Numbered from the stretch's first letter, positions 34,040-63,420 are shown. The stretch: 64,000 nt of DNA from Candidatus Micrarchaeota archaeon (GCA_016207165.1 JACQQD010000001.1:116643-180642); one strand, 5' to 3'. The notes: generated by a model not told the origin, from the sequence alone. Program-made: numbers and translations.

Positions 34040-35394
34040 ACCCGGACATGTTCCGCGCGTACGACATCCGAGGCATCGTCGGAGAGGACCTCAACGACGC
34101 CGTCTTTGAACGCCTGGGCCAGGCCTTCGGGCAATACCTGCGCGAACGCTCTGGAAACAAGCCGTCGTGTGCCGTCGGCGGCGACAACCGCGAATCGTCG
34201 GCTTCCTATTTGAGCGCCTTCACCACGGGCTTGCTTTCCGTGGGCTGCGACGTGATGCACGTCGGCGAGATCACGACTCCCGGCCTTTACTTTGCCAATT
34301 CCTTTTTGAAAACCACCGGCGCGGCCGCGGTGACGGCGTCGCACAACCCGCCGAAGTACAACGGCGTGAAGTTCATTTTCCAAGGAAAAAGCGCGGGCGG
34401 AGCCGAGGTCCAGCGCGTGCGCGAACTGGCCGAGAAAAACTCGTTTTCAAAAGGGCAAGCCACCCTCTCCAAAAAGGACGTCACGCCGGCTTATTTGGAG
34501 GCCTTGTCGGAAAATGCCGAGCCCCTCAAACTCAAGGTGGTGGCGGACTGCGGCAACGGCGTGGCCTCCGATTTCGCTGTTTCCTACTTGAAGTCGCTGG
34601 GTTGCGACGTGGTGCCGCTTCACTGCGATTCCTCCAAGCCTTTTTCCGTGCACGTGCCGGACCCCGTGGACCCCGACAACTACGTGGATTTGGCGGCCGC
34701 CGTCCGCAAGCACGAGGCCGACGTGGGCTTGTTGTTTGACGGCGACGGCGACCGCGTGGGCGCCGTGGACGAGTTCGGTGGCATCGTGTCACCCGACAAG
34801 ATGTTGATCTTGTTCGCGCGCAAGTTCCTCAAGGAAAACCCCGGCGAAAAAGTCGTCATTGAAATCAAGTGTTCGCAGGCCGTTCAGGACGAAGTCGAGA
34901 AGCTCGGCGGAACGGCGGTGTGGGCGCCCACAGGCAGAACGGTGATTGAAGACGTTTTGTTCAAGGAACACGCGAAGCTGGCTGGGGAAATGTCGGGCCA
35001 CTTTTTCTTTTTGAACGGCCGGGCGTGGCTTTCCGAATCGCTGTACGCGGCACGGCAGTTGCTTGAAATCATCGCTGAAAACGGTTCGCTTTCCAAGCAG
35101 GTCGCTTCCATGCCGAAGTACGTGTCGTCCCGCGAGTACCGAGTGGACGTCACTGACGGGGAAAAATTCCGAATCGTTTCGAAACTGTCCAGCCAATTCA
35201 AGAAGACGCACCGCGTTTTGGAACTGGATGGCGCCAAGGTGTTGTTTGACGATGGTTGGGGCTTGGTTCGAGCGTCCAATTCCGAAGCCAAGGTGTCCCT
35301 CCGGTTTGAATCCAAAACGCGGAAGGGCTTGGCGGCGATTGAGTCCGCTTTCAAGGAAAAACTCTTGGCCGCAGGCGTGTCCGTGCCGTTTTAG
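34021..35394 (+). CDS. Phosphomannomutase/phosphoglucomutase
   Basis: FRAYDIRG, TASHNP, FDGDGDR, GEMSGH. Confidence 0.95.
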   Translation: MPVVRLNPDMFRAYDIRGIVGEDLNDAVFERLGQAFGQYLRERSGNKPSCAVGGDNRESSASYLSAFTTGLLSVGCDVMHVGEITTPGLYFANSFLKTTGAAAVTASHNPPKYNGVKFIFQGKSAGGAEVQRVRELAEKNSFSKGQATLSKKDVTPAYLEALSENAEPLKLKVVADCGNGVASDFAVSYLKSLGCDVVPLHCDSSKPFSVHVPDPVDPDNYVDLAAAVRKHEADVGLLFDGDGDRVGAVDEFGGIVSPDKMLILFARKFLKENPGEKVVIEIKCSQAVQDEVEKLGGTAVWAPTGRTVIEDVLFKEHAKLAGEMSGHFFFLNGRAWLSESLYAARQLLEIIAENGSLSKQVASMPKYVSSREYRVDVTDGEKFRIVSKLSSQFKKTHRVLELDGAKVLFDDGWGLVRASNSEAKVSLRFESKTRKGLAAIESAFKEKLLAAGVSVPF

Positions 35395-35783
35395 AGTCTC
35401 AATTCTTCCGGACGAATGATTTGGATTCCGCGAAATTCCTTGAGTTTCAGCAAGTGCCGATCGTACGTGAGGATATGGGTCGCATGGCCGTCTACCGCAC
35501 ACGCCAGTACCTTGTCGTCTTCGGGGTCATCTTTCACGGCGTGTATGACCGTCGTTACTGCAACTATGTTTGTCAGCGCGGTGACTCTTGACGTGGCGTC
35601 TTGCACTTCTCTGGTCTGGTACTCGAAGTCCCTATGCAAGACGGATTGAAGTTCTTCAAGGATTTCTTTTGAAACCAACAGGGTTGCATGTGTCTTGTGC
35701 AACGCGCGGATTTTTTTGTCCGCCTCGCTACCGTCCCACTGGGTGGCAGAAACTAAAATGTTCGTATCCAGCACCACCCGCAT
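35391..35783 (-). CDS. PIN-domain toxin
   Basis: VVLDTNILVSA, DPEDDKVL, ILTYD.HLL. Confidence 0.9.
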   Translation of the reverse strand: MRVVLDTNILVSATQWDGSEADKKIRALHKTHATLLVSKEILEELQSVLHRDFEYQTREVQDATSRVTALTNIVAVTTVIHAVKDDPEDDKVLACAVDGHATHILTYDRHLLKLKEFRGIQIIRPEELRL

Positions 35784-35786
35784 GTT

Positions 35787-36062
35787 TCAGAAACGCCTTT
35801 TCCGATGCTTTTCAATGAGGTCCGGAATATCCCTTTCAGTCAATCCCTTCTTTTGTAGCCGTTTCTTGCCTTCTTTTCCCATGGTTTCCCAATCCTTCCA
35901 AAACTGTTCTTCCGTCGGCGGAAGCATGCGTTTAAGTACAATCGTGTCGCCGCGGACCGCCAAGGCAAACGCCGTGCCCTCTTCAATGCCCATTTCGTCC
36001 CGCGTTTCTTTAGGAATCACGAGCTGTCCCTTGCTGGATACTTTTACGATTTCAACGTGCAT
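35787..36062 (-). CDS. AbrB/MazE-type antitoxin
   Basis: VSSKGQLVIPKE.R..MGIEEG; directly upstream of the PIN gene. Confidence 0.9.
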   Translation of the reverse strand: MHVEIVKVSSKGQLVIPKETRDEMGIEEGTAFALAVRGDTIVLKRMLPPTEEQFWKDWETMGKEGKKRLQKKGLTERDIPDLIEKHRKRRF

Positions 36063-36241: not shown

Positions 36242-36371
36242 GCCGAGGTAGCTCAGCCTGGCTAGAGCGCTAGACTCATATGCCCGTTTCCTTGTTTAGG
36301 GAGCGGTGGAATTCTATGCCGGTGGTTGCTGGGCCATCTAGAAGTCGAGGGTTCAAATCCCTCCCTCGGCA
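36242..36371 (+). tRNA. tRNA-Met(CAT) with 55-nt intron at 37/38 (36281-36335)
   Basis: GCCGAGG/CCTCGGC acceptor stem, CTAGA-CTCATA..ATCTAG anticodon arm, GAGGG-TTCAAAT-CCCTC T arm. Confidence 0.92.
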
Positions 36372-37471
36372 TGACCCGGAAAGTTCATGTGCCGCACTCC
36401 ATCAAGATTCAAACGAGCGTACTGTTTGAGCAAATCCATTTTGCCTTCGTCAAAGATTTTCCTGACGATTTGACGCATCAAGTCCTTGTCCTTCCGGATC
36501 AATTCGACGACTTCATCCGAAAAGCCTTCCAGGAATTCCTCGGGAGACGTGGCCCCCATTTTCTGCAATTCACCCATGAGCGCCTGCTCTCCGGAGTGAT
36601 CGTACACTGAAAGCATGTTGGACTTCTTGGACCACCGCGCAAACGTGCGCGTCGCCGAATCACTAGCGCCGTTGGCCCGCAACTGCGTGATCTTGGAGTG
36701 CCGGAACCAATGCGGGTTGATCCGCTTCTTGACGCCGGCACGCTGGCCGAGGCCACGCAAGAACTTGGCCAAGTTCGCCGGCTCCAACGCATCACCATGA
36801 AAATTCAGCCAAAGCGGGGCCTCCGAATCCGATTTCTTCGGGTGTTCACGCAAGTACGCCCGGAACAAGTCGACGGCGTGACGATTGATCACCGGCACGC
36901 GGCCGTTCCGGTACGGCGTCTTGGTACCATGAAAGTGAAAGATCAAAAACGGCGGCCGATCCGTGACGTCGCCCACCTTCAAATCCGTGAACTCCTTGGC
37001 GGCGCCCCCGGATTCAAACAAGCACCGCACCACAACTTGCTCCCGCACGCTGCGACACGCCGCCTCCAAGCGCGTGATGTCCTCATCGGTGAGAACCTCG
37101 TTCTCCGGAATCAATTTGTCCGCCGGCCGAACCACGCGCACCCGGCCCGCCCGCTTGGCGTCACCATCCAAGAACCGGTAAAACTTTTTGAGAGCCACCT
37201 GGTAGTCGTGCTTGGTCCACGCCCGCCACTTGCTCGTGTTAATGGCCACTAGGACGGCATCCAAGTCTTCGTCCTGGAGATCCACCAACGCCTTGGAAGT
37301 CAAGCGCTTGATGGACGTAAAATTGCTGATGTACTTGCTCAACCGCAACTCGCCCACGCCCTGGGCCTGCAAGTTGTTCAAGAACCGCGTGATGGCCTCC
37401 TTGTCCCGCGCCGAAAAAGTAGACCTAGCCAACGACAGCTGGCGTTGCGCGTACAAAGCCACTCCATCCAT
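36353..37471 (-). CDS. Tyrosine recombinase/integrase; C-terminus reads through attL
   Basis: GTKT, HWFRH, W.KKSNM...Y.H; first catalytic Arg appears replaced (ESGGAAKE). Confidence 0.9.
   Translation of the reverse strand: MDGVALYAQRQLSLARSTFSARDKEAITRFLNNLQAQGVGELRLSKYISNFTSIKRLTSKALVDLQDEDLDAVLVAINTSKWRAWTKHDYQVALKKFYRFLDGDAKRAGRVRVVRPADKLIPENEVLTDEDITRLEAACRSVREQVVVRCLFESGGAAKEFTDLKVGDVTDRPPFLIFHFHGTKTPYRNGRVPVINRHAVDLFRAYLREHPKKSDSEAPLWLNFHGDALEPANLAKFLRGLGQRAGVKKRINPHWFRHSKITQLRANGASDSATRTFARWSKKSNMLSVYDHSGEQALMGELQKMGATSPEEFLEGFSDEVVELIRKDKDLMRQIVRKIFDEGKMDLLKQYARLNLDGVRHMNFPGHAEGGI
36359..36373 (+). repeat. attL core CCCTCCCTCGGCATG
   Basis: tRNA 3' end; identical to 48040-48054. 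Confidence 0.9.
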
Positions 37472-37637
37472 TACAGGTACCCTTCCTCTCGCGCTACTTT
37501 AAGCAAATCCAATAAAAAACGCATTCTCGACCGCGACACTCAAACCACCAAGAAAACCCGGTCGCCCACGCGCTCAACCACGCCGTGCGGAAACAAGCTT
37601 AACGCTTCCACCGGCACCCTTGAAATATCCCAACGCC

Positions 37638-37772
37638 TCACGCCGACCCCTCCGCATACTTCTGCAAAACGCACGACCGGATCAACTCACTGCGAGACAA
37701 GCCGATACGCTCCGACTCCTTGTCCAACAACTTGACAATTTTCTCCGGCAACGAAATTGAAACAAGTTCCAT
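37638..37772 (-). CDS. Ribbon-helix-helix (CopG-like) protein, 44 aa
   Basis: Translated by hand: MELVSISLPEKIVKLLDKESERIGLSRSELIRSCVLQKYAEGSA. Confidence 0.8.
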   Translation of the reverse strand: MELVSISLPEKIVKLLDKESERIGLSRSELIRSCVLQKYAEGSA

Positions 37773-37854
37773 ACGAAGGCCTATCGGTTAACACTTAATC
37801 TATTCTTAAAGGTTTCGTTGCTTGCCAGTAGTTTAAGTACAAATCATATACGCT
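37773..37854. promoter_or_regulatory. Divergent promoter region of the provirus
   Basis: AT-rich; TTTAAG boxes on both strands (37831 +, ~37810 -); GCAACGAAA/TTTCGTTGC inverted repeat at 37748-37756 / 37813-37821. Confidence 0.5.
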
Positions 37855-38202
37855 ATGCGTATGGCGGACGAGCCGACTATTGAAGAAATGGTCCAACTCC
37901 TAAAGAAACGGCGTTTCCTGCCGTTTGGCCACTCGTCTTACTTGGCAATCTTCATCGCAATGCTGGAAAAACCGCTCTCCAAGGCCGAAATGCAGGAAAT
38001 CGCAGGGCCCACTCCGCAAGGCGCGTTCATTCGAATTTTTGCAGCCCCGGGCGTCGGCTTCATGAACCGCGTCTTCGGCAAAAGCAAGCAAGGTAGCGAC
38101 ATCGTCAAGTACGAGTTGACGGAGAACGGACGCCAATTCGTCCTGGATCAACTGGACCTACTCAAAACGTTTTATAAGGCCACAGAACCAAAAAAAGAGT
38201 GA
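37855..38202 (+). CDS. Winged-helix DNA-binding protein (putative repressor)
   Basis: PLSKAEM.EI...YELTENGR wing motif. Confidence 0.65.
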   Translation: MRMADEPTIEEMVQLLKKRRFLPFGHSSYLAIFIAMLEKPLSKAEMQEIAGPTPQGAFIRIFAAPGVGFMNRVFGKSKQGSDIVKYELTENGRQFVLDQLDLLKTFYKATEPKKE

Positions 38203-38209
38203 ACAGCCA

Positions 38210-38518
38210 ATGGACAACTTCGAAGCGCAAGTAATTTCAATAACCCCCGTTCACTGGCCGGATGGCACTCTTGCCGTTAGCGTCGTCTTCGGTAACCCCG
38301 TTGCCGTTCAACAAAAAACACCAGATCAAAAAAACGTCGTACACGTTCAATTGCCAGGCCAACTACAAAACCAAGCGGTTCCACTCGCAAATCGCGTTAT
38401 ACTTCTTTTAACCCAAAAAGAATGGGACCAACTTCAACACAAGCCGACATACGGGGAAGCTTTCACATTCGCATCAACGAAAAACGGTTTCAAATTTGAA
38501 CGGGCTGCAAAAAATTAA
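38210..38518 (+). CDS. Small beta-rich hypothetical protein
   Basis: ORF in operon with wHTH and hicBA. Confidence 0.6.
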   Translation: MDNFEAQVISITPVHWPDGTLAVSVVFGNPVAVQQKTPDQKNVVHVQLPGQLQNQAVPLANRVILLLTQKEWDQLQHKPTYGEAFTFASTKNGFKFERAAKN

Positions 38519-38519
38519 C

Positions 38520-38840
38520 ATGTTTTGTTTTGACCTCCGGTTCAACACAAAAAAAGACGGAAAATTTTGGTTTATCGAGTGCCCAGACTATCCCGTGTTC
38601 ACGCAAGGCCGAACCAAAAAAGAAGCCAAAGAAAACCTCAAAGAAGCATTTTTGCTTTACGCCTCCGATTCAGATGCACAAGCCAAGCATCCCGAGCTAA
38701 AGCAATTATTCGCCCAGCAGCCAACCCAAGTCAAGTCCCTTACCGTTACGTTCGCGGTACCCGTCGATTCTTTCCTCTCAGCCATTTATGCCCCGCTTGC
38801 CGATTCTGTCAGGAAAACAACTGGCGAAAATCCTCTGTAA
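38520..38840 (+). CDS. hicB: HicB-family antitoxin
   Basis: IECPDYPVFTQGRTKKEAKENLKEA..LY. Confidence 0.85.
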   Translation: MFCFDLRFNTKKDGKFWFIECPDYPVFTQGRTKKEAKENLKEAFLLYASDSDAQAKHPELKQLFAQQPTQVKSLTVTFAVPVDSFLSAIYAPLADSVRKTTGENPL

Positions 38841-39018
38841 ACACTTCGGCTTCACGGAATCCCGAATAGCTGGAAGCCACCTCATCCTGAAAGGCGCCCG
38901 AAACGGCCAAGCCAAGACCATTCCAATTCCACTGCACCCGGAAATCGGGCGGCACTTGTTGAGCAGGATACTAAAAGAAGCCGAAATTTCACGAGAAGAA
39001 TTCGAAAACGCGTTATAG
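38788..39018 (+). CDS. hicA: HicA-family toxin
   Basis: LP.LSGK.L..IL...GF...R..GSH.IL...IP.H.EI....L..IL.EA. Confidence 0.9.
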   Translation: MPRLPILSGKQLAKILCKHFGFTESRIAGSHLILKGARNGQAKTIPIPLHPEIGRHLLSRILKEAEISREEFENAL

Positions 39019-39225
39019 GCCGCGCAAATCTGAGAAGATTACGTTCAAGCCAAGCAACGCCTTGCTTTTCTCCTCCGGCGACAACTCCGGCTTGTCCACC
39101 AACCTCATGACCATGGCGTGGTACTTGCGTTGTTCTTCCAGCGTAATCCAGTGGCGTTCCACGGCCCGCGCCAAATCCGATTCAATCTGCTCAAGGTACC
39201 GAGCGTAGGCCTTCCCCATCACCAA
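39013..39225 (-). CDS. Hypothetical protein
   Basis: ORF with TTTAAA-like box upstream. Confidence 0.5.
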   Translation of the reverse strand: MVMGKAYARYLEQIESDLARAVERHWITLEEQRKYHAMVMRLVDKPELSPEEKSKALLGLNVIFSDLRGL

Positions 39226-39334
39226 AGACTCGCGGGAACCCTTTAAAACCCTGGAGGCAGCAGCTGGCCGGTGAAATTTCAGCCTTTCTTGCGGCGTTTT
39301 TCTTCTAGTTTAACCAGAATCTCTAGGTGATTTT

Positions 39335-39676
39335 ATGACCAAAAAAACCCAAAGCCAAATTCTCGCGGAACTCCAGAACGGCTTGCACGACTCAAGCATC
39401 AAAGCAATGGACGGCTACCTGAAATACCTCCAGGAATTAAAGGTGCATTCAGACGAACTAGAAAAGCTCGAATTTACCTCTGCTTACGGCACAACGGCGC
39501 TTTTGCAAATGAGCGCTGTCACGTCAACTCTTGGTAAACAAATTTTTGAATTGGAGAGCTCCTTGAACCGTTTTTCCGAAACGACGACGAAACTGACCCA
39601 CGTCCTGATAGTTCTTGCAGGACTCCAAATCGTTTTAGTCGTCCTGCAGGTTGGCCGGATGTTCAATTTCTTTTGA
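39335..39676 (+). CDS. Coiled-coil protein with C-terminal TM
   Basis: RBS aggtga; C-terminal hydrophobic helix. Confidence 0.6.
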   Translation: MTKKTQSQILAELQNGLHDSSIKAMDGYLKYLQELKVHSDELEKLEFTSAYGTTALLQMSAVTSTLGKQIFELESSLNRFSETTTKLTHVLIVLAGLQIVLVVLQVGRMFNFF

Positions 39677-39687
39677 TGTCGACTTCA

Positions 39688-39867
39688 TCACTTTCCGCGG
39701 CGGATGAGTTCTTCCCGAAGCGCATCAATGGCGTCAATCAACCGTTCGTGGGACGCCTGGAGCTTTCGGAACACGGTTTCATGGATGTACACCATGTACG
39801 CAAGCCATAGCGCGACGATGCCGTTGTTCGCCAGCGCGTCCAAAATGATTGCGGAGAAATCAGTCAC
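39688..39867 (-). CDS. Small membrane protein, holin-like architecture
   Basis: GTG start overlapping the upstream stop; one TM plus coiled coil; last gene of the structural operon. Confidence 0.55.
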   Translation of the reverse strand: MTDFSAIILDALANNGIVALWLAYMVYIHETVFRKLQASHERLIDAIDALREELIRRGK

Positions 39868-40073
39868 ACGCCAAACCCCATTTTCCGCAGGCGCTCCGCC
39901 AAAGCGTTTGCGTCCATGTATGAAGACTTTACGGTGACTTCCACGTCCACCGTGCCATCCGGATTCGTCGCCACGACCTCCCACTTGACGGCGTTGGCCA
40001 ACTCCAAGGCCTCCGGCGACAACGACCCCAAAACCCCTTGCGGTTTCAACGGAATGTTTTTGAGCCTCATCAA
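39864..40073 (-). CDS. Small viral protein
   Basis: Coupled to the spike gene. Confidence 0.55.
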   Translation of the reverse strand: MMRLKNIPLKPQGVLGSLSPEALELANAVKWEVVATNPDGTVDVEVTVKSSYMDANALAERLRKMGFGV

Positions 40074-41119
40074 ACCACCCCGTCAACCAGCAACGGCGTT
40101 CCCAAGTCGATGTTGATAGTCCTGTCAACGAAACCCGCGCAGTACAACCCGAATCCGGCAACGCTTGCCGGGCCGGTGTTCGTCGTCGTCAGCGTGGGTC
40201 CACCCGTGGCTGCGTGCGCGGGCAAATTCTGCCAGTACGAAAACTCGACTCCAGCCTTCCAATAGACTTCAAAGGTGTTGAATGCGGTTCCAACGGCTGC
40301 ACCGGTGGCGTGGTTCGTCGCCGCGCCCGCCGCACTCGTCGTCTGCAAACGGAAACCCGCGCTTGCAATGTTGATGCCGAAAGCACTTTTCGGGTATGCG
40401 CCGGTAATGTCCGCCGTCGCGCTTTCCGTGAAATAGATTCCCGCTTCCATGTTGGCGTCCACCACGGACGCGCGAATGGAAAACTTCGCCCAAAGTTCGG
40501 TCACGGACGCGCCGATGGGCCAAATCAATTGCGTCTTGTTGTTCGCCCCGGACCGCGTGCTGGCCATTCGCGCGTAGGCCACGGCTTGCGATTGCACGTT
40601 CGTGCTTCCTGCTCCCTGGTTGTCCGTGCTGGGAGCGCTACCTAGAACTGTGCCGTCCACGTGGGCGATTCGTGCCGCGGGAGCAACCATGCGCATGTTC
40701 ACGCGGTACTTGAGGGCGTTGGCGACGTTGGGCAAACCAAGGCCGCCGACTTGGGCTGCTGTTGGCGAGGAAATCGCGCACAACACTTCGTTGACAAAAC
40801 CGTTTCCAAACTTTCCGCGCCCCGTTGCATCCGCAGTAAACACTCCAACCGGCAACTTTGACAAGAGAACTTGGTTGTCGCCCAGCAATCCCGAGTCCAC
40901 GAAAGAACTGGCGAATTTGCCGCGTCCCGTCGCATCCGCCGTGAACAAGCCGGTGGGCACGTGGCCCAAAGCCATGGCCGCCCACGCTGCCAAGCTGGAT
41001 CCATTCGTCGCAAGCAACTGGTTTGCGGTGCCGCCCTTGACGCGACTGGACCCGCCGGCAGTGGTCTCCAGCGTGACGTTGTCGGGAGTAAAAACGCTTC
41101 CACCAGGAAGAAAACCCAT
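40070..41119 (-). CDS. Putative spike/receptor-binding protein
   Basis: G/A/T/S-rich, duplicated FTADATGRGKF repeat, beta-rich C-terminal domain. Confidence 0.6.
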   Translation of the reverse strand: MGFLPGGSVFTPDNVTLETTAGGSSRVKGGTANQLLATNGSSLAAWAAMALGHVPTGLFTADATGRGKFASSFVDSGLLGDNQVLLSKLPVGVFTADATGRGKFGNGFVNEVLCAISSPTAAQVGGLGLPNVANALKYRVNMRMVAPAARIAHVDGTVLGSAPSTDNQGAGSTNVQSQAVAYARMASTRSGANNKTQLIWPIGASVTELWAKFSIRASVVDANMEAGIYFTESATADITGAYPKSAFGINIASAGFRLQTTSAAGAATNHATGAAVGTAFNTFEVYWKAGVEFSYWQNLPAHAATGGPTLTTTNTGPASVAGFGLYCAGFVDRTINIDLGTPLLVDGVV

Positions 41120-41122
41120 TCG

Positions 41123-42265
41123 TCAAATCAACCCGGCTTTGCGCATGCCTTCCCGAATCACGCCCGTGTCAAAGCCAAGGCCCGACTGGGAAAGCACGGT
41201 CAAGAAACTTTCTCCGGAGGTCGACGGCGACACCGTCAGCAAGAAAGCCAGCTGGCGTTCAAGCGTCGATCGAAGGCCGGCGTCGACGAATCCGCTTTCT
41301 CCAGCCAACGATCGGCGGATGGCGTCTTCGGCGACTTGCCGCGCCGTCATGCCCGGAGACGCAAAGTCTCCAGACAAGAGGCGCAACTGCGCGGGGGGAG
41401 CCGGCAGTGGAACAGGAGAATAATTCGGGATGACTTGCGCAGGCGATGGTTGCGGGGGCAAAGTAACCTGGACTTGCAGCGGGTAACCGCCAGTAGGCTC
41501 GGCGGTGCCGACTTCGCCAAAGTAAAGCCTCACCGCTTCCAAACCCGCATTCAACGAGTCTTTGGCCGTCCAACCAAACGCCCAAAACACGGGAGCGCCG
41601 ATGCCCAAGTCTACGCGCTTGATGAACACGTCACCGCTTTGCGTAACTGCCTCTTGGGCATCCGGGGACAAACGCAGCAACAACGAGCCGAGGCCCGTTT
41701 CAAAGCCCGGCGTCAGCCAACCCCCAAGCACCAAGTAATTGACTTTGCGAGCGGAAACGCCCAGGCTTCTAGCCACGGTAGCCGTGACGGTAAACGCGGA
41801 CGCGTCCATGGTTTCCACGGACAAGCCCACCGCCTGAATCGCGCCCTTGACTGTCGGCAGAATCGTTTGGCTGCCAGCATCTTTTCCGGTCACGATGACG
41901 ACGATGCCGCTTGTTTCCGCCGGCTTTTGAGCAGCCGCTTGCTCCCGGACGCCGCCTAAGACGAAGTCGTAGATGCCAGCCGGGATTCCGAACAACGGGT
42001 TAGTGGCCGTCAAGGCTTGCGCGGCCGGCGACGTGGCCAATTGCTGCGACGTTTCAGCCAAGGCTGGCAACACGGGTTGAAAAGAGACTTCCGGAGCGCG
42101 AGGAAACACGGGTTCCGGGGCCTTGGGTTCCTCGATGACGAACGCGTTGCGTGGCAACGGCACGTTCTTAAACTCCTTGGGCTTGGCTTCGTCTTTCACC
42201 GACAGCCAGTAGCCTAACGCCAGGAGGCCAGCCGCGGCCAAAACCAACGTGCCCTGGTTCGCCAT
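41123..42265 (-). CDS. N-terminally membrane-anchored virion protein with S-layer-like alpha/beta domain
   Basis: N-terminal TM; IVVIVTG..A, NYLVLGG, VFWAFGWTAKDS. Confidence 0.55.
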   Translation of the reverse strand: MANQGTLVLAAAGLLALGYWLSVKDEAKPKEFKNVPLPRNAFVIEEPKAPEPVFPRAPEVSFQPVLPALAETSQQLATSPAAQALTATNPLFGIPAGIYDFVLGGVREQAAAQKPAETSGIVVIVTGKDAGSQTILPTVKGAIQAVGLSVETMDASAFTVTATVARSLGVSARKVNYLVLGGWLTPGFETGLGSLLLRLSPDAQEAVTQSGDVFIKRVDLGIGAPVFWAFGWTAKDSLNAGLEAVRLYFGEVGTAEPTGGYPLQVQVTLPPQPSPAQVIPNYSPVPLPAPPAQLRLLSGDFASPGMTARQVAEDAIRRSLAGESGFVDAGLRSTLERQLAFLLTVSPSTSGESFLTVLSQSGLGFDTGVIREGMRKAGLI

Positions 42266-42266
42266 T

Positions 42267-42506
42267 TCATTTCCTCAACAGCAGAAACGCTGCGATCGCC
42301 AGTCCTCCAAGCAAAATCAAGGGGCTAATAGAGAATCCCGAAGACGTGGCTTGAACGGCCGGCGCTGGCTGCGTGATCGGCTTGACGATTTCCTCTCCAA
42401 CCACGAATGCAGTCACTGCGATAGCGCCCAACGCCAAAACCGTGGGCAAGGCAGGCAACGCGGCAACAGCAATCAAAGGCAAAACCATTTTTTTCAACAC
42501 CTTCAA
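42267..42506 (-). CDS. Small hydrophobic virion membrane protein
   Basis: Two hydrophobic segments. Confidence 0.6.
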   Translation of the reverse strand: MKVLKKMVLPLIAVAALPALPTVLALGAIAVTAFVVGEEIVKPITQPAPAVQATSSGFSISPLILLGGLAIAAFLLLRK

Positions 42507-42865
42507 GCTGGGATCAAGTCCCCTTGGATCATCAACTGGACGACGCCCGAGCTGGAGGCAACCAAGGCCAACAATTCGATGGTTTCGTTTTGGTCCAGGA
42601 CAAGAGGTTTTCCGCTTCGGTTCACAGTGAACGCTTGCGTCAAGCGGCGTGAAGACGTCGTGGTCAACAACGGCTTACCTTTGATCCGTAAATCAATTTG
42701 ACCGGCCACCGCCGACCCCGTGAAATTCGAGTCCGCCGTAATGCTGATCTCGAGGATCTCCGCCTTTTTTCCAGCGGGAACCGTGAACGTGACCTGACTG
42801 GTCAAAGCCGTCTGGTTGACAGTGATCGCGTCCGAGAGGAACACGAAGGGATCCGACGCCGGCAT
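42503..42865 (-). CDS. Beta-rich 120-aa protein (penton/minor capsid candidate)
   Basis: FTVPAGKKA.I.EI.I motif; directly after the MCP candidate. Confidence 0.5.
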   Translation of the reverse strand: MPASDPFVFLSDAITVNQTALTSQVTFTVPAGKKAEILEISITADSNFTGSAVAGQIDLRIKGKPLLTTTSSRRLTQAFTVNRSGKPLVLDQNETIELLALVASSSGVVQLMIQGDLIPA

Positions 42866-42872
42866 GGCGCCA

Positions 42873-43712
42873 TCACTCCCTGATGCCCAGGTACCAGTTG
42901 ATCGTGTCCGAGCCGGCGCCCGTCACGTCCAACTGCATCTGGCTGGAGGGAATGAAGGGCGTCACCGGCACGCGGAAGCGACCGGTGATGTGTCCGGACA
43001 CGAAGCGGTCCTGGTCAAGCGCAATCAAGTCCGCCGGCGTGAGAGCTGACAATTCCAGCGATCCATCCCGCGAAAGCGTGAAGTCCGTAACGTTGGCCTC
43101 CGTGCCGACCGTGAACCCCACGAGTTCAATGCGGCGGCCTTGCGGCAGGTTCGGCCCAAAACGGTTTGCTCCGGACACGATGGACTGCGACAAGCGCATG
43201 TACCGTTGCGTGAAACCCGAATCCACGTTGGAGTAAAGACCCACGACAGTCAACGTCACCGTGCCACCCGTGGCGCCGGACGTAGCCATGTCACTGAACG
43301 GAGCAATGGTGACTTGCAGCCGCGCGTCCATGTCTTTTTGCGCAATCGCGTTCGGCAAGTAGTACCGACGCGTTTGGGACGAGGAAGACGTGGTGGCCAC
43401 CGCAGTGTTGATGCCCATCGGGCTAAACAACTGCTCAATGATGGCCAAGTCGCGGCCGCGGACGTTCTGCCAAATGGCGTTGCCACCCTTGTCAGAAATC
43501 TTGACGTCCTGGATCGCGTAATCCAGCGTGTTCGCGCCCGTCAGCGTGCCCGTGGTCGACTGCGTCAAGTGGAACTCCAATGCCACCAAAGCGCCCACGT
43601 TGGGAATGACGACTTCCGACTGCGTGGCCGCCGACGCGGCCATGGCCACGCTGGAAAGCGACTGGATCGTCAAGCGCTTGACGCGCTGTTCAAGTTGACT
43701 TTGGTGTTGCAT
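42873..43712 (-). CDS. Probable double jelly-roll major capsid protein
   Basis: 279 aa, beta-rich two-half pattern; IP.VG.LV.L...IQDV.I...G..I..V.G.DL resembles PM2/STIV-type MCP; downstream of the ATPase. Confidence 0.65.
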   Translation of the reverse strand: MQHQSQLEQRVKRLTIQSLSSVAMAASAATQSEVVIPNVGALVALEFHLTQSTTGTLTGANTLDYAIQDVKISDKGGNAIWQNVRGRDLAIIEQLFSPMGINTAVATTSSSSQTRRYYLPNAIAQKDMDARLQVTIAPFSDMATSGATGGTVTLTVVGLYSNVDSGFTQRYMRLSQSIVSGANRFGPNLPQGRRIELVGFTVGTEANVTDFTLSRDGSLELSALTPADLIALDQDRFVSGHITGRFRVPVTPFIPSSQMQLDVTGAGSDTINWYLGIRE

Positions 43713-43724
43713 GATTCCAACACC

Positions 43725-44021
43725 TCACGCGCGAGCAAACACGCCGGAAAGCGTGTTTGCCACGGGTTGAAGAAACGGAACCACGATGGGTGAGACGGCG
43801 ATGACGAAGCCGGCTGCCATGGCGCCCTTGGCTGCAAAGCCAACCACACCAGACTTGCCCACGAAGGCGTACAACGCGTAACCGGCTGCCACCATGAGTG
43901 CTCCGAGAATCATCGGGCTGCCGCCGGAGAACGCGCCCAGCAAGGGCTGCAAGACGCCGGACGAAAAGACTTGCGCAATGCCCAGCGAAGCCGCCGACAT
44001 CAAAACTTCCATCAAAACCAT
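43725..44021 (-). CDS. Small multi-TM virion membrane protein
   Basis: Hydrophobic; strong RBS aaggtga. Confidence 0.65.
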   Translation of the reverse strand: MVLMEVLMSAASLGIAQVFSSGVLQPLLGAFSGGSPMILGALMVAAGYALYAFVGKSGVVGFAAKGAMAAGFVIAVSPIVVPFLQPVANTLSGVFARA

Positions 44022-44080
44022 GACAAAATCACCTTGAACACGGCTTTGCCCTGGAGTCGTTCAAAAAGACCCCAGTTTTT

Positions 44081-44118
44081 TTAACCGGGGTTATACGCTG
44101 GAGTATAACCCGCGTTAA
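44081..44118. promoter_or_regulatory. Palindrome upstream of the structural operon
   Basis: TTAACCGGGGTTATAC-6nt-GTATAACCCGCGTTAA (14/16 arms). Confidence 0.55.
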
Positions 44119-44300
44119 ATCCGGTTCGCGTGGTGCAGGCGTTGCCAGTGCGCGTCGACTTCTTTCTTGAGGACGAAGCGCAGGAACTCGGACAAGTGAA
44201 GGTAGCCGTTGGATCCCGCGATTTTTCGGACCTTCCAGGCTTTGGGCACGCGTACAGCAATGAATTCGTACTCGTTTTCCTCAAATTTTTTCGTGTTCAA
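44115..44300 (-). CDS. RHH-like small DNA-binding protein
   Basis: FIAVRVPK...LSEFLRFVLKKEV. Confidence 0.55.
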   Translation of the reverse strand: MNTKKFEENEYEFIAVRVPKAWKVRKIAGSNGYLHLSEFLRFVLKKEVDAHWQRLHHANRI

Positions 44301-44862
44301 CCACGTGGCCCCCGTCAAAATGCAAGAACCGAAAGCCGCTTAGATCCTTGGCTTTGAAAGCGTCGTCGCCAATGAATCCCCGGAGGTACTCCAAATCCTG
44401 CGGCATAATTGTCCTGAAAACGAACAAGTGGTTGACTTGCGCGACGGGCGCCTTGTCCAAGTCGGCGATGCGGCGCGTGACGCAGAACATGCCAACGTTG
44501 CGGTGTCGGCCCAAGTCAATGAACTCCTTTGCGCGTGGCCCGATTTTTCGGGACGGCATGACTTGGTCGGCTTCATCCACAAACAAAAAGAAGCCGCCTG
44601 CCTTGTACACCAGCGCGGCCACGTCCTCGAATTCCTCTTGGCTTCGGGTGCGGCCCTGGAAAACGATTTTCTGGTTCAACCGCATGGCCACCCGCAGCTG
44701 GTCCAGCGACTCGACTTTCATGCCGAGGCTGCCGTGTTCGCGCATGGGGTCCCACAACACGTAACGCGGCGTGTTTTTGACGACAGACCTCATGAAATGG
44801 CTTTTTCCAGAGCCCCGCATGCCGCAGCAAACCACGACGTCCGTTCCCTTCATGCGAATCAT
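44281..44862 (-). CDS. A32/FtsK-HerA family genome packaging ATPase
   Basis: GMRGSGKS Walker A, FLFVDEAD Walker B, GRHRN and VTRR motifs; ~190 aa. Confidence 0.85.
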   Translation of the reverse strand: MIRMKGTDVVVCCGMRGSGKSHFMRSVVKNTPRYVLWDPMREHGSLGMKVESLDQLRVAMRLNQKIVFQGRTRSQEEFEDVAALVYKAGGFFLFVDEADQVMPSRKIGPRAKEFIDLGRHRNVGMFCVTRRIADLDKAPVAQVNHLFVFRTIMPQDLEYLRGFIGDDAFKAKDLSGFRFLHFDGGHVVEHEKI

Positions 44863-45161
44863 GTCTTCGGCCCCGTGAGTTTCTCAAAACCCTCCTGAAT
44901 TTTTTTCTGCTCTTGGACCAATGCGGCTTGGAGTTCCTCCGGCGACTGCGCAGGCATCCGGGCTTCGACTTTGTGCTTGTGCAGCCACTCGTGAAAGTAG
45001 ACGAGCACGTCGTCTTCGATTTTTCCCCTGTTAGCCAAGATCGTGGCTTTGAAGCCGGATCGGCTGGCGCGGAGCAGGCCCCGCATTTGAGGCGGTACGA
45101 ACTGCACGAGCTGCATGAAAAAGTCCGTCAATTCCTCGCAGGCCTGATCCGACAACACCAC
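44859..45161 (-). CDS. Hypothetical viral protein
   Basis: Coupled to the ATPase. Confidence 0.6.
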   Translation of the reverse strand: MVLSDQACEELTDFFMQLVQFVPPQMRGLLRASRSGFKATILANRGKIEDDVLVYFHEWLHKHKVEARMPAQSPEELQAALVQEQKKIQEGFEKLTGPKT

Positions 45162-45165
45162 CCGT

Positions 45166-45321
45166 TCAACCCTCGAAAAACTCGTCTTTTTCTTCGGCTT
45201 CCTTTTCCTTACTCAAGGCGTCCAGCCTCTCTTTCAAGTCGGCGACTTCACGCTTGAGGGCCTCGTTTTCTCGCACCAGTTCTTCCAGCCGCTGATAGCC
45301 CGGCTTTTTTTCTTCCGTCAT
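45166..45321 (-). CDS. 51-aa coiled-coil protein
   Basis: Translated by hand: MTEEKKPGYQRLEELVRENEALKREVADLKERLDAL...; RBS ggtga. Confidence 0.6.
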   Translation of the reverse strand: MTEEKKPGYQRLEELVRENEALKREVADLKERLDALSKEKEAEEKDEFFEG

Positions 45322-45417
45322 TGTCGTTCACCGTCCTGGACCGGAGAGGCCCCCGCAGTGAGTGCGGGGACATCCGGTTTTTGGGTGGGTTTCTTCGTTT
45401 TCTGAGCGTTTTGCCCT

Positions 45418-46089
45418 TCAAGGCGTGACACTCGGGCTTCCAGTTCCTGGATTTCCTGCTGTAGATCCGCTTCCGACATTCTCGTTCCCTCCTTTCTTGG
45501 CCATTTCCGCAGCCAATTGAGCTTTGTTAACCAGAGTCGTGACTAGGACGGCGCCCAAAACCGCCAGCTCCATGTGTTCCTTCAAGAGATCCGGCGCGTA
45601 CTTTTCGACCACCGGCTTTGAGACTTCCGCCAAGTTGTCGGCTTCGTCTTTCTCTAACTTCCAGGCCTCGTTTTTCTGGGCGCCGGCCAAGACGTTGAAT
45701 CCAGCCTTCCAAATACCGGCCAACATTTCCACCCGGATTTGAAAGTCCTTGACTTGCGCGGTTTTCTTTCCGAATTCAGCCACGTCTTCTTCCGTAACCG
45801 GTTCCGACACTTCCGGCAGCTTCTTTTCCGGTTGTTCCACGACGACGGAAAGCCCTTTTTTAGACCCATCCGGCCCGGAATCTTTGGCCTCAGCATCCGG
45901 CGTCCCATCCGGCGCTTTGACCTGGATTTGTTGTTCGGCAGCCGCCAATTCCGACTTGGTGGCCACTCCAATGTGTCGATCGCAGTTTGGGCACCGCTTC
46001 GATAACGGGCTGCCTTGCCAGTCGTGCCTGCAAAAAGGACAATGCCGCTTGATTTTCGGGCCTTTCTTGCGCCCGGGCTTATTGGCCAT
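45418..46089 (-). CDS. Zn-ribbon protein with C-terminal membrane segment
   Basis: CPFC...CPNC; W.L...EA..LA....PV.EKY followed by a hydrophobic helix. Confidence 0.7.
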   Translation of the reverse strand: MANKPGRKKGPKIKRHCPFCRHDWQGSPLSKRCPNCDRHIGVATKSELAAAEQQIQVKAPDGTPDAEAKDSGPDGSKKGLSVVVEQPEKKLPEVSEPVTEEDVAEFGKKTAQVKDFQIRVEMLAGIWKAGFNVLAGAQKNEAWKLEKDEADNLAEVSKPVVEKYAPDLLKEHMELAVLGAVLVTTLVNKAQLAAEMAKKGGNENVGSGSTAGNPGTGSPSVTP

Positions 46090-46285
46090 TCAAATCACCT
46101 TTGTCTTGATGCGAGAATTGCTCGATTTTTTCCGCAAGTAATCCTGCCAAGACGATCAGCACGACGTTGTTCAGGTGCTCTTTCACCAGCTGCGGTTCGC
46201 CTTGTCCCTTTGATTTTGAAAGGCGGCCGGCAATGAGTGCCACGTCGGTTTGGATTTTTCTCGCGGTTTCGCAATTTTCGCACAT
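46079..46285 (-). CDS. Small CxxC protein
   Basis: MCENCE; coupled ORF. Confidence 0.55.
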   Translation of the reverse strand: MCENCETARKIQTDVALIAGRLSKSKGQGEPQLVKEHLNNVVLIVLAGLLAEKIEQFSHQDKGDLNGQ

Positions 46286-46288
46286 TTT

Positions 46289-46951
46289 TCATCCCCCTTG
46301 TAACACTGTCTCTAAACCCTGTGGTTTTGGTACGGTTTTGTCCGTTTCCGTGCTTGAATTTGAAACGTTGCTTAACTGGCCAGTTTTGATTCGACGCCAA
46401 ACGGTTGGGGCGGACACTCCGAGTTCTTTGGCAATTTTCCGAACGCCAAAGCCTTGCTGACGCAGTGCGTCGATGGCCTTAAGGCTGATGTCGCGTGGTT
46501 TGCGGCCGACTTTTACTCCGCTTTCGCGAATCTTGGCCCGGCCTCTTTCGTTTCTTTCTTGGATCAAAAGCCACTCGATGTCGGCAGCAAGCGCAAGGCC
46601 TCCAATTAGGGCCCTTCCTTCCATGGCGTTGTAATCTAACGTTGTTTCAGAATTCACCAGGACAATTTTGATACCGAGCTTGGAAAGAGTCTCGACTGTG
46701 TGGTGAATGAAGCCAATTGAACGGCCGAGTCTGGAAAGCTCCACGATGCCCACCAATTCGAATTCTTTGAGGTTAGCCGCTTCAAGCAATGCATTGATGC
46801 CTGCACGCGAATCCTGACGCCCGGAAACAGCAAAATCCTCGAACAAAAAGAAGTCGTAGCCTTTACGGGTGGCCCAGGCTTTCAATTGCTGGGCCTGCCC
46901 ATCCAAATCCTGCTTGCGGGTTGAACACCGAGCATACAAGGCCACCCTCAT
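46289..46951 (-). CDS. Serine recombinase (resolvase/invertase) with C-terminal HTH
   Basis: YARCST..QD...Q, VSG...R, LSRLGRS, ER..RG, GRK, IAKELGVS..TV. Confidence 0.92.
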   Translation of the reverse strand: MRVALYARCSTRKQDLDGQAQQLKAWATRKGYDFFLFEDFAVSGRQDSRAGINALLEAANLKEFELVGIVELSRLGRSIGFIHHTVETLSKLGIKIVLVNSETTLDYNAMEGRALIGGLALAADIEWLLIQERNERGRAKIRESGVKVGRKPRDISLKAIDALRQQGFGVRKIAKELGVSAPTVWRRIKTGQLSNVSNSSTETDKTVPKPQGLETVLQGG

Positions 46952-47051
46952 GCTCTTGCACCCCACCACCGCAACGGCGCAAAACCCAACCGACAAAATC
47001 GGCACACATAATGTCCGAAGTCCGGAGGATTCCTGTGACAATGGCGGCACT

Positions 47052-47942
47052 TCAAGGCTGCATTCCTCCAAAGCGTTTCAAGAAGTCCTCCTGGACTTCG
47101 CTCCGTTTTTGCACGTTGGCCACAGCTTGCGTGAGCTTGAACAACGTTTCCCGGAGTTCTTCCGGATCAATAGCGCCTCGTCCCACCAAGTCCAGGAACT
47201 TGGCGATGCGGTGCATGTCTTCCACCGCGTACTGCTTGTCAATCGTCTCGACTTCAGCAACCCCCGTGGAAAAATCGATGACAAGACGGTTGGTGCCGTA
47301 GTGAAAACCAGAAGGGACCCAGCGCGTAATACCGCCCAGCATGGCAATGTGGTGCCGGCACAAGTCGAAGGATCCCTCAAGCAGAAGCCCAGGAAAGCGC
47401 CGCTCCATTTTCTTGGAAATCTGAAAGCCCAGTTCCAGGAGCTGCTCGGCGGCCTCGTACACGCTGCCGGCGTACACTTCCTTGGGGTAAATCAGCATGC
47501 TGGACTTGTTGAAAAAAATCTTGTTCCCATCGTGGTGAATCTGGTAGCCGTCCATGAAGCCCCGAGCCGTGGCCATGCCGCCCACATCCACCAAGCGCTT
47601 GACTAAGTCCTCCGGAACTTCCACAATGCTGAATTTGAGGATTGCCGCATGTGGCCTAAACCGAATCTTGATTTCCGTCCGGAGCAGCTCGTCGATGTTG
47701 CGGTTCCCGAACACCCTTCTTAGGACTTTTAGTTCATGCTTGCCTGCGGTGGTCAGCGTCCAGTACTTGGTTTTGGCTCCAGGCTTCAAATCTGCGAGAA
47801 CTCGTTTAACGAGGCCCAGACGCTCCAGAACGGCCAATCTTCGGTAAGCGTTGGATCGGTCGATCTTCAAAAGCTTGCCCAAATGGGTCGCGGATCCGGA
47901 TTCGTCAGCAGCCAGCAGGGCGATATATGTTGCGCCTGCCAT
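47052..47942 (-). CDS. wHTH-containing protein, candidate replication initiator
   Basis: N-terminal MarR-like wHTH (SNAYRRL..LE..GLVKR...W.LT..G); C-terminal domain with R.H...KF.I motif. Confidence 0.6.
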   Translation of the reverse strand: MAGATYIALLAADESGSATHLGKLLKIDRSNAYRRLAVLERLGLVKRVLADLKPGAKTKYWTLTTAGKHELKVLRRVFGNRNIDELLRTEIKIRFRPHAAILKFSIVEVPEDLVKRLVDVGGMATARGFMDGYQIHHDGNKIFFNKSSMLIYPKEVYAGSVYEAAEQLLELGFQISKKMERRFPGLLLEGSFDLCRHHIAMLGGITRWVPSGFHYGTNRLVIDFSTGVAEVETIDKQYAVEDMHRIAKFLDLVGRGAIDPEELRETLFKLTQAVANVQKRSEVQEDFLKRFGGMQP

Positions 47943-48039
47943 GTTGCGGTTTTTAGGGCGACTCAAAAAAACCGCCACCCCGTTTTTTTGGAGTGCGGCT
48001 TTTCGCTATTTTTGCGGCTCTTGAACTTTCCTTACGTTG

Positions 48040-48054
48040 CCCTCCCTCGGCATG
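48040..48054 (+). repeat. attR core CCCTCCCTCGGCATG
   Basis: Exact copy of the tRNA-Met 3' end. Confidence 0.9.
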
Positions 48055-48201
48055 GTCGCCCCGGGGGACACCTGCGCTTCGGCTCCGGTTTCCCCCTGGC
48101 ACGCCCTACGCCTCGCCCCCTTCCTTTTCGATTCGCAGCGCTAAAGTGAGGGAGGGTCAGGAAGAACGTGAAACTGGGGAGGGACGCGTCCTCCGCGGTT
48201 C
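48055..48201. repeat. GC-rich hairpin (REP-like) elements
   Basis: Reverse complement of 48147-48201 resembles 7671-7727. Confidence 0.6.
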
Positions 48202-63202: not shown

Positions 63203-63420
63203 TGGGGTCGGGGGGATTCGAACCCCCATTCCCAGGTGTCTTCGAAGGCCGGTCATTGCGGCAAGCCGCGTCGGCGCTCCAATCGTTTAATTCATTGCTT
63301 GGAAAAAACTCCAAGCTCGGCACACCTGTTTTCTCCCAACAGGTTCCATTTTCCGTTTTTCCCGTTTGACCGGGTAAAACCACTGGAGCCTAGTGTTCTG
63401 CCAGGTTATACTACGACCCC
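63203..63420 (-). tRNA. tRNA-Trp(CCA) with 145-nt intron (63238-63382)
   Basis: GGGGTCG/CGACCCC acceptor stem, CTAGG-CTCCAG..ACCTGG, GGGGG-TTCGAAT-CCCCC. Confidence 0.92.
63238..63382 (-). ncRNA. Intron-encoded box C/D guide RNA
   Basis: TTGGAGCG-CCGA and CAGGTGTG-CCGA guides place the +5 position on C34 and C39 of the pre-tRNA. Confidence 0.7.

Follow-up and report, generated by a model that had tools for sequence, protein, structure and literature searches.

A putative archaeal provirus whose attachment site lies in the codons for the predicted disordered tail of its own integrase

The integrase gene of an element inserted at an archaeal tRNA gene was found to hold the core of the attachment site in codons 367-371 of 372, downstream of the catalytic Tyr290 and of every helix in the protein model, as expected from the original prediction that the att site lies in the 3' end of the gene and that integration swaps the C-terminus. 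The reading that best accounts for the locus is that a tailless-icosahedral-type provirus of 11.7 kb occupies the 3' end of a tRNA-CAU gene, and that its whole attP would be carried within codons of the disordered C-terminal tail of its own integrase. Recombination within the core would part the last 28 codons, which encode a basic tail of low complexity, from int, leaving a provirus gene that ends one codon past the core, at the TGA of the tRNA T-loop. The effect of this swap would most likely be quantitative, such as weakened DNA binding or synapsis once the basic tail is missing, and loss of the tail would favour stable lysogeny by analogy with IntP and IntX of the phage Mx8. The gene array led by a wHTH gene probably uses its own leaderless-type promoter inside the element, independent of read-through from int. 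We place high confidence in the anatomy of the locus and regard the explanation as a whole (attP in disordered-tail codons, a modulatory swap and a wHTH promoter of its own) as moderately probable, with the effect of the tail and the use of the promoter being what we infer.

Exactly two copies of the 15-mer CCCTCCCTCGGCATG were present when both strands of the window (the whole 64-kb stretch of DNA analysed) were searched with up to one mismatch, one at either end of the element (Table 1). The chance expectation for this repeat is 0.01, and two matches were obtained in 0 of 100 shuffles; in the flanks of the two copies, no identity extends beyond the 15 bp. The left copy spans the 3' half of the T-stem, the 3' strand of the acceptor, the discriminator, and 2 nt past the tRNA. 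As read by hand, the target tRNA has the anticodon CAT at 36277-36279, which corresponds to Met or Ile2, and a 55-nt intron at 36281-36335 in the canonical 37/38 position; ARAGORN, run in bacterial mode, misreads this intron-bearing gene. A second tRNA, called by Rfam at 63203-63420 on the minus strand (36.1 bits) and missed by ARAGORN, is 218 nt long, which implies one or more long introns. The target tRNA is adjoined on the minus strand by a host PIN-domain (VapC-like) gene and a MazE/AbrB-type antitoxin gene (35391-36062).

Table 1. Features of the integrated element and its junctions, in window coordinates
Feature	Position	Strand	Basis or remark
Host tRNA gene, integration target	36242-36371	+	Rfam RF00005, 59.1 bits
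Tyrosine integrase, XerA-like, provirus form, 372 aa	36353-37471	-	Pfam PF00589, PDB profile matches, AF2
att core, left copy (tRNA/int-side junction)	36359-36373	+	Repeat search of window
Integrated element body	36374-48039	.	11.7 kb between core copies
Inverted-repeat arm GGAAAGTTCA	36378-36387	+	4 nt from core; codes part of M-N-F-P in int
CopG-type RHH gene, upstream of int	37638-37772	-	Pfam RHH_1, E 6e-9
FtsK/HerA-type packaging ATPase	44281-44862	-	phrog_2666, E 6e-26
Small serine recombinase (resolvase/invertase + HTH)	46289-47050	-	Pfam Resolvase E 7e-27; phrog_125
wHTH protein, 296 aa, first gene after junction	47052-47942	-	Pfam wHTH families only
Detached int 3' end, 28 basic-tail codons + stop	47953-48039	-	Translation; similar homologue tails
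GC-rich hairpin + U7, candidate terminator and/or TATA-like element	47965-48002	-	Terminator-like scan, fold, spacing
Inverted-repeat arm TGAACTTTCC	48022-48031	+	8 nt from core; partner of 36378-36387
att core, right copy (element/host junction)	48040-48054	+	Repeat search of window

The two core copies are continued by different int endings. The provirus ORF terminates in NFPGHAEGGI followed by a stop, with HAEGG read from the core and the final isoleucine and the TGA stop contributed by the tRNA T-loop. Across the right copy, the minus strand (48054-47956) translates to HAEGGQRKESSRAAKIAKSRTPKKRGGGFFESP, in which HAEGG is followed by the 28 basic-tail residues QRKESSRAAKIAKSRTPKKRGGGFFESP, and then reaches a TAA at 47955-47953, leaving a gap of 10 nt to the wHTH ATG (47942). 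These readings agree with the original prediction, which had the integrated Int finishing HAEGGI inside the tRNA and the joined attR and attL giving HAEGG plus a basic 28-aa tail, with its stop 10 nt ahead of that ATG. Since it takes the joining of the two core copies to connect them, the detached tail is contiguous with int only in the predicted circular form. An open run of at least 28 codons occurs at 58% of arbitrary window positions, so an extension that stays open for 28 codons has no significance of its own; the other two frames of the tail close after 7 and 16 codons. Two further features were observed around the right junction. A GTG-started 49-codon ORF (47953-48102, minus strand) begins in host DNA and crosses the core into the detached basic tail, and the core's first nine bases, CCCTCCCTC, are repeated at 48148-48156 on the minus strand, ~100 nt outside the junction, where they could be a chance match or a remnant.

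The integrase has the hallmarks of a canonical tyrosine recombinase. Pfam places PF00589 at residues 126-294 (E 3e-13) and otherwise returns only a weak SAM_6 match, and the protein carries the residues R149...H254xxR257...Y290 in its catalytic domain together with the beta-hairpin lysine, K184. Alignment A2 shows no variation at K184, H254, R257, W280 or Y290, and R149 is present in the window protein. The best PDB profile matches were to archaeal XerA (4a8e and 5hxy), while the best annotated viral relatives were pleomorphic-virus integrases at 25-26% identity. The AF2 model, built on 25 sequences, has a mean pLDDT of 89; it places four further helices past the catalytic tyrosine, up to residue 356, and residues 356-372 fall below a pLDDT of 50. 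Since the core-encoded residues 367-371 lie in this disordered C-terminus, the 28-residue tail that follows them in the circular form is predicted to be disordered likewise. According to the model, integration spares every folded part of the integrase, and because the folded parts and the R..HxxR..Y residues are intact, the provirus integrase is probably still active; it is predicted to retain activity, unlike the SSV-type 'suicidal' integrases. Measured over the last 25 residues, the net charge is +5 for the detached tail of the window protein and +1 for the provirus end.

In the SSV-type, pTN3 and pT26-2 integrases, which make up the 'suicidal' class (Type I), int is divided between Int(N) and a catalytic Int(C) and loses its activity, as described in a review of archaeal integrases (PMC8371274). 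The locus described here has in common with these systems, as they are presented in that source, an archaeal host, a tRNA target, an att site within int and a compact all-in-one module (PMC8371274). Type I integrases belong to Phage_integr_3 (PF16795) and have R..KxxR..Y, with K replacing the first H, whereas this integrase matches PF00589 and has R..HxxR..Y with H254 present. Its att site also does not separate Int(N) from a catalytic Int(C), as the core lies past Tyr290. The difference from SSV-type N-terminal partitioning that had been proposed from the sequence is therefore borne out, with the core at codons 367-371 and the catalytic domain undivided. The classical integrases (Type II: pNOB8, SNJ2 and XerA-like) have their att outside int, and the gene is unaltered by integration (PMC5861418, PMC8371274). 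They have the same canonical tyrosine-recombinase fold, but in our locus the exchange involves 28 codons, and the provirus and the predicted circle use different stop codons. Judged by the features that define the two archaeal types, the locus belongs to neither Type I nor Type II.

The Myxococcus phage Mx8 has a tRNA gene as its integration target. Its attP lies within int, and integration makes a recombinant gene with a new 3' end that encodes an active but altered enzyme (PMC6070905). As with IntP and IntX of Mx8, the predicted attP is located here inside the 3' coding region of int and integration would give the protein a new C-terminus, making Mx8 by analogy the closest precedent for this locus. 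The likeness is one of layout. Mx8 is a bacterial tailed phage, whereas here an archaeal XerA-like integrase belongs to a putative tailless-virus provirus, and the exchange is limited to a disordered tail that comes after a helical extension of ~65 residues. In mycobacteriophage BPs, attP lies in the 3' coding region of the repressor gene, the viral and prophage proteins have different C-termini, and integration acts as the switch (PMC3694055). The BPs repressor loses a degradation tag upon integration (PMC3694055), whereas in our element it is int that is interrupted and loses a basic tail, with no evident link to immunity, and the RHH and wHTH genes are uninterrupted.

The four possible junction combinations (attP, attB, attL and attR) were modelled by coordinates. 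Only the predicted circular junction, attP, contained a perfect 10-bp inverted repeat (made up of TGAACTTTCC and GGAAAGTTCA), while the longest inverted repeats in the arms of attB, attL and attR were 4, 4 and 3 bp, respectively. When 20,000 random pairs of 45-nt arms were drawn from this window, a fraction of 0.00225 reached 10 bp. The dyad of the two arms falls on the sixth base of the core, and the arms and core together form a putative attP of 47 bp that lies wholly within the int reading frame of the circular form. A dyad inside the core would be the arrangement expected for strand exchange in an overlap of ~7 bp within the identity block, and we infer both circularisation at the core and the position of the exchange.

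The repeat could instead be a coincidence or a dead remnant, such that int contains no functional attP. It is only 15 bp long, neither a circular form nor an empty site was seen, and among 185,579 reference genomes no relative was detected bar one distant bacterial locus: the integrase-profile scan gave 119 pattern matches and 1 confirmed locus, in a bacterial Bellilinea MAG with 25% identity. We nevertheless consider this explanation extremely improbable given the low chance expectation of the repeat, the position of one copy exactly at the 3' end of a tRNA and adjoining an integrase, the 10-bp inverted repeat that emerges only from the joined ends, and the fact that every ORF of the element, int included, is intact.

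The close subfamily of the integrase comprises 16 members including the window protein, i.e. 15 homologues. Six of these, at 41-60% identity, came from 8 matches among 4798 candidates (the other two being the window protein and one distant match), and at least nine further representatives (E <=9e-69) were among the 150 best of 34,267 matches at E <=0.001. Basic low-complexity ends were found in P0003, P0004, P0006, P0007, P0009, P0011 and P0013, whose last 25 residues carry a net charge of +4 to +8, and the end of P0015 is rich in K/R yet has a net charge of just +2. The tails are modestly enriched in K/R (5-8 of 25 residues versus ~4 expected), an excess that could come partly from A-rich regulatory DNA read in frame. 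A second kind of end was seen in P0010 and P0012, which terminate 3-4 residues past GLEP or GFEP, and in P0014, which reads AGIRTRV; at the peptide level, these endings are the ones predicted for a T-arm (GG-TTCGA-CC) read in reverse complement. P0005, P0016 and P0017 fit neither class clearly.

P0007 and P0010 are 57% identical overall, and their C-terminal extensions are poorly conserved and barely alignable. Both nevertheless contain TPRAGLEP, after which P0010 continues with PAAA and a stop, while P0007 continues with a basic tail of 22 residues. In our own codon reading, which back-translation partly reproduced, the P0010 continuation is compatible with completing the T-stem and that of P0007 is not, so that judging from their peptides this pair would mirror the two int ends of the window. 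A general back-translation test for T-arm peptides proved too permissive, with 5 of 960 tail positions and 23 of 5242 body positions matching in the subfamily, and gave no discrimination. In 158 proteins, the motif G[FLIVM]EP occurred 4 times in the last 80 residues (12,640 positions) and 4 times elsewhere (49,704 positions), with three of the four tail matches belonging to the close subfamily. The assignment of homologues to a putative 'integrated' or 'free' form is made at the peptide level. Conservation of the att-in-int layout was one of the points on which the original prediction was to be judged; with basic tails in some homologues and T-arm-like ends in others, the peptides support it, and the layout appears to be family-wide.

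Several homologues also have a conserved N-[FYV]-P shortly before the core-encoded residues (columns ~390-400 of alignment A4), which in the window (36378-36390, minus strand) coincides with one arm of the 10-bp inverted repeat. Because of this coincidence, the conservation could be at the DNA level, with N-[FYV]-P being kept as a putative Int binding site, rather than at the protein level. In the next-closest and far larger family (P0018-P0030 and others, ~400 aa), the C-terminal extension contains a CxxC...CxxC zinc ribbon, which stands where the close subfamily has its helical extension and basic tail.

These comparisons also bear on whether the tail exchange does anything at all, since the layout could be a neutral by-product of compaction in which attP overlaps a dispensable, disordered end of int and the exchange of tails is functionless. 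Disorder is predicted for the swapped segment, which is located beyond every folded element, the tails are unconserved except in composition, the A-rich DNA of this region gives Lys codons, and, as noted above, the open frame of the tail carries no significance by itself. Basic tails of ~15-40 residues with a charge of +4 to +8 are, however, found in 7 of 15 homologues (39-59% identity to the window protein, alignment A4), and such recurrence would be difficult to sustain unless the reading frame were under selection. The equivalent change in Mx8 also alters the behaviour of the integrase (PMC6070905). We regard a functionless exchange as unlikely, although it deserves real weight beside a possible modulatory effect of the tail.

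The element contains int and the CopG-type RHH gene, a plus-strand block that includes HicB/HicA and a long minus-strand array that leads from the wHTH gene through the small serine recombinase and several small ORFs. It also encodes the packaging ATPase and ORFs lacking family matches that may be structural. When searched by tblastn, the ATPase matched STIV2, Vibrio NO16-like phages, and Bacillus, Methanosarcina and Thermus virus records (23 records). An FtsK/HerA-type packaging ATPase is characteristic of tailless icosahedral (PRD1/STIV-like) viruses, and judging from these matches the element is most likely the provirus of a tailless icosahedral virus that contains a membrane. In the search for a jelly-roll major capsid protein, the ORFs in 40070-43712 gave no Pfam, PHROG or tblastn match; among phage records, the capsid candidate ORF at 42873-43712 had no tblastn match either. 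The HicB-like antitoxin gene (a weak PHD_like match) and the HicA toxin gene (PF07927, E 2e-11) overlap by ~50 nt at 38520-39018 on the plus strand and may form an addiction or defence module. The element has a serine recombinase beside its tyrosine integrase, for which dimer resolution and inversion are possibilities. The host can be recognised as an archaeon from several features of the window: archaeal GlmM and signal peptidase, V-type ATPase subunit I, intron-bearing tRNAs and TATA-type upstream elements.

The first gene of the array had been taken for a replication gene, but this label finds no support past the wHTH domain. The C-terminal domain of the protein is unassigned. Pfam matched the protein to wHTH families and, below threshold, to Replic_Relax (E 0.003; 18 bits versus a cut-off of 25), and no Rep, primase or helicase domain was recognisable in Pfam or PHROGs. 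The homologue search returned one relative at 33% identity, the PDB sequence search nothing below E 0.46, and the Atlas comparison scores of <=0.80 and no assignment; the AF2 model, with a pLDDT of 50.6, was unusable. An identity as Rep was accordingly set aside, since Pfam, PHROGs, the homologue search, Atlas, AF2 and PDB all gave no assignment.

Placement of an AT-rich octamer at 20-26 nt from the start codon corresponds to leaderless transcription in archaea. We analysed upstream regions for such an octamer and for a Shine-Dalgarno-like pentamer, with 25 host genes as the reference. An AT-rich octamer ending 20-26 nt upstream was present in 7 of the 25 host genes, 5 of which had no Shine-Dalgarno-like pentamer. 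Within the element, the wHTH gene has no Shine-Dalgarno sequence and is preceded by TTTTTTTG, a TATA-like T7G at 47964-47971 that ends 21 nt before its ATG. A TATA-like TTAAAGTA ends 23 nt upstream of the int start, and a BRE/TATA-like cgaaacCTTTAAGAATA ends 28-30 nt upstream of the RHH gene. The octamer was found at 20-26 nt in none of the five Shine-Dalgarno-led internal genes (resolvase, Zn-finger ORF, orf98, orf279 and orf380). Since the T-run lies inside the element, the predicted wHTH promoter would stay with its gene in the provirus.

The U7 that follows the GC-rich hairpin (U7 at 47971-47965) precedes the wHTH ATG by 23-29 nt and falls inside the tail codons, and from its sequence the hairpin with its U7 looks like a terminator. 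The terminator-like scan, which uses sigma-70 promoter and intrinsic-terminator patterns unsuited to archaea, gave 4 sites versus 2.2 expected, which is not significant; folding of the whole region as RNA gave a z of -1.49, with 15 of 200 shuffles folding equally well, and a further T7 is present inside the wHTH coding sequence. A host BNR/sortilin-repeat gene (48261-50624, minus strand) is located upstream of the wHTH array of the provirus and is co-directional with it. Host read-through from this gene into the provirus is possible, and the hairpin and U7 might insulate against it.

The original prediction held that RHH, int, the wHTH gene, the resolvase and the ATPase form one transcription unit in the circle, and that integration cuts the downstream genes off from their promoter, with recombination itself acting as the lysogeny switch. 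The co-directional array stands: the genes are co-directional and contiguous in the predicted circle, the restored int stop is 10 nt from the wHTH ATG, and the genes from wHTH to ATPase abut or overlap. Integration-dependent switches are also known from bacteria, in Mx8 (PMC6070905) and BPs (PMC3694055). A single transcription unit driven from the RHH or int promoter fares less well, given that one TATA-like element precedes int and another precedes RHH, the two genes being separated by 166 nt with a T6 run. The wHTH gene itself has the T7G at a spacing seen in 7 of 25 host genes, and it has no Shine-Dalgarno, whereas five internal genes of the array have one and no octamer. A separate promoter between the tail stop and the core (47955-48040), which the prediction had named as the observation that would contradict it, is predicted in the form of TTTTTTTG; this candidate lies inside the element, where integration would not sever it from the downstream genes. 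The hairpin and U7 fall within the final 30 nt of the tail codons, and in the provirus the co-directional host gene at 48261-50624 could feed transcription into the array. The one homologue found for the wHTH protein, moreover, is on a 3652-nt contig, a size that none of the contigs carrying the int homologues has, so that no synteny with int is visible. Taken together, the balance of evidence, in which the promoters are predicted ones, is against integration cutting genes off from a promoter; we consider the operon-splitting switch improbable, and recombination as the lysogeny switch is speculation.

One bolder and rather doubtful extension of the modulatory reading is that this small archaeal XerA-like family has overprinted all of attP on codons for a disordered basic tail, and that integration and excision reversibly toggle between an integration-proficient enzyme with the tail and an excision-restrained one that lacks it. 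If true, this would be a 'semi-suicidal' state between the classical and SSV-type integrases, in which the product of recombination sets directionality without a separate excisionase.

A 2021 review of archaeal integrases (PMC8371274) recognises only the suicidal and classical types and contains no mention of Mx8. No archaeal attP at the 3' end of int was found in the open-access literature searched, and the attP-in-int layout, known from bacterial phage, has apparently not been described in archaea. The concept is thus already known from bacteria, and the regulatory significance of the tail swap here is hypothetical and unproven. With two kinds recognised in that review (PMC8371274), this locus and its relatives would constitute a third archaeal layout, one that swaps nothing but a disordered tail. 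In protein databases, integrated copies could be told from free ones by how the peptide ends, with a tRNA-T-arm-like sequence in the former and a basic tail in the latter. Should the tail influence activity, the family would offer a simple, testable case of recombination products regulating their recombinase, and the exchange of a disordered tail is also a plausible evolutionary step towards suicidal integrases.
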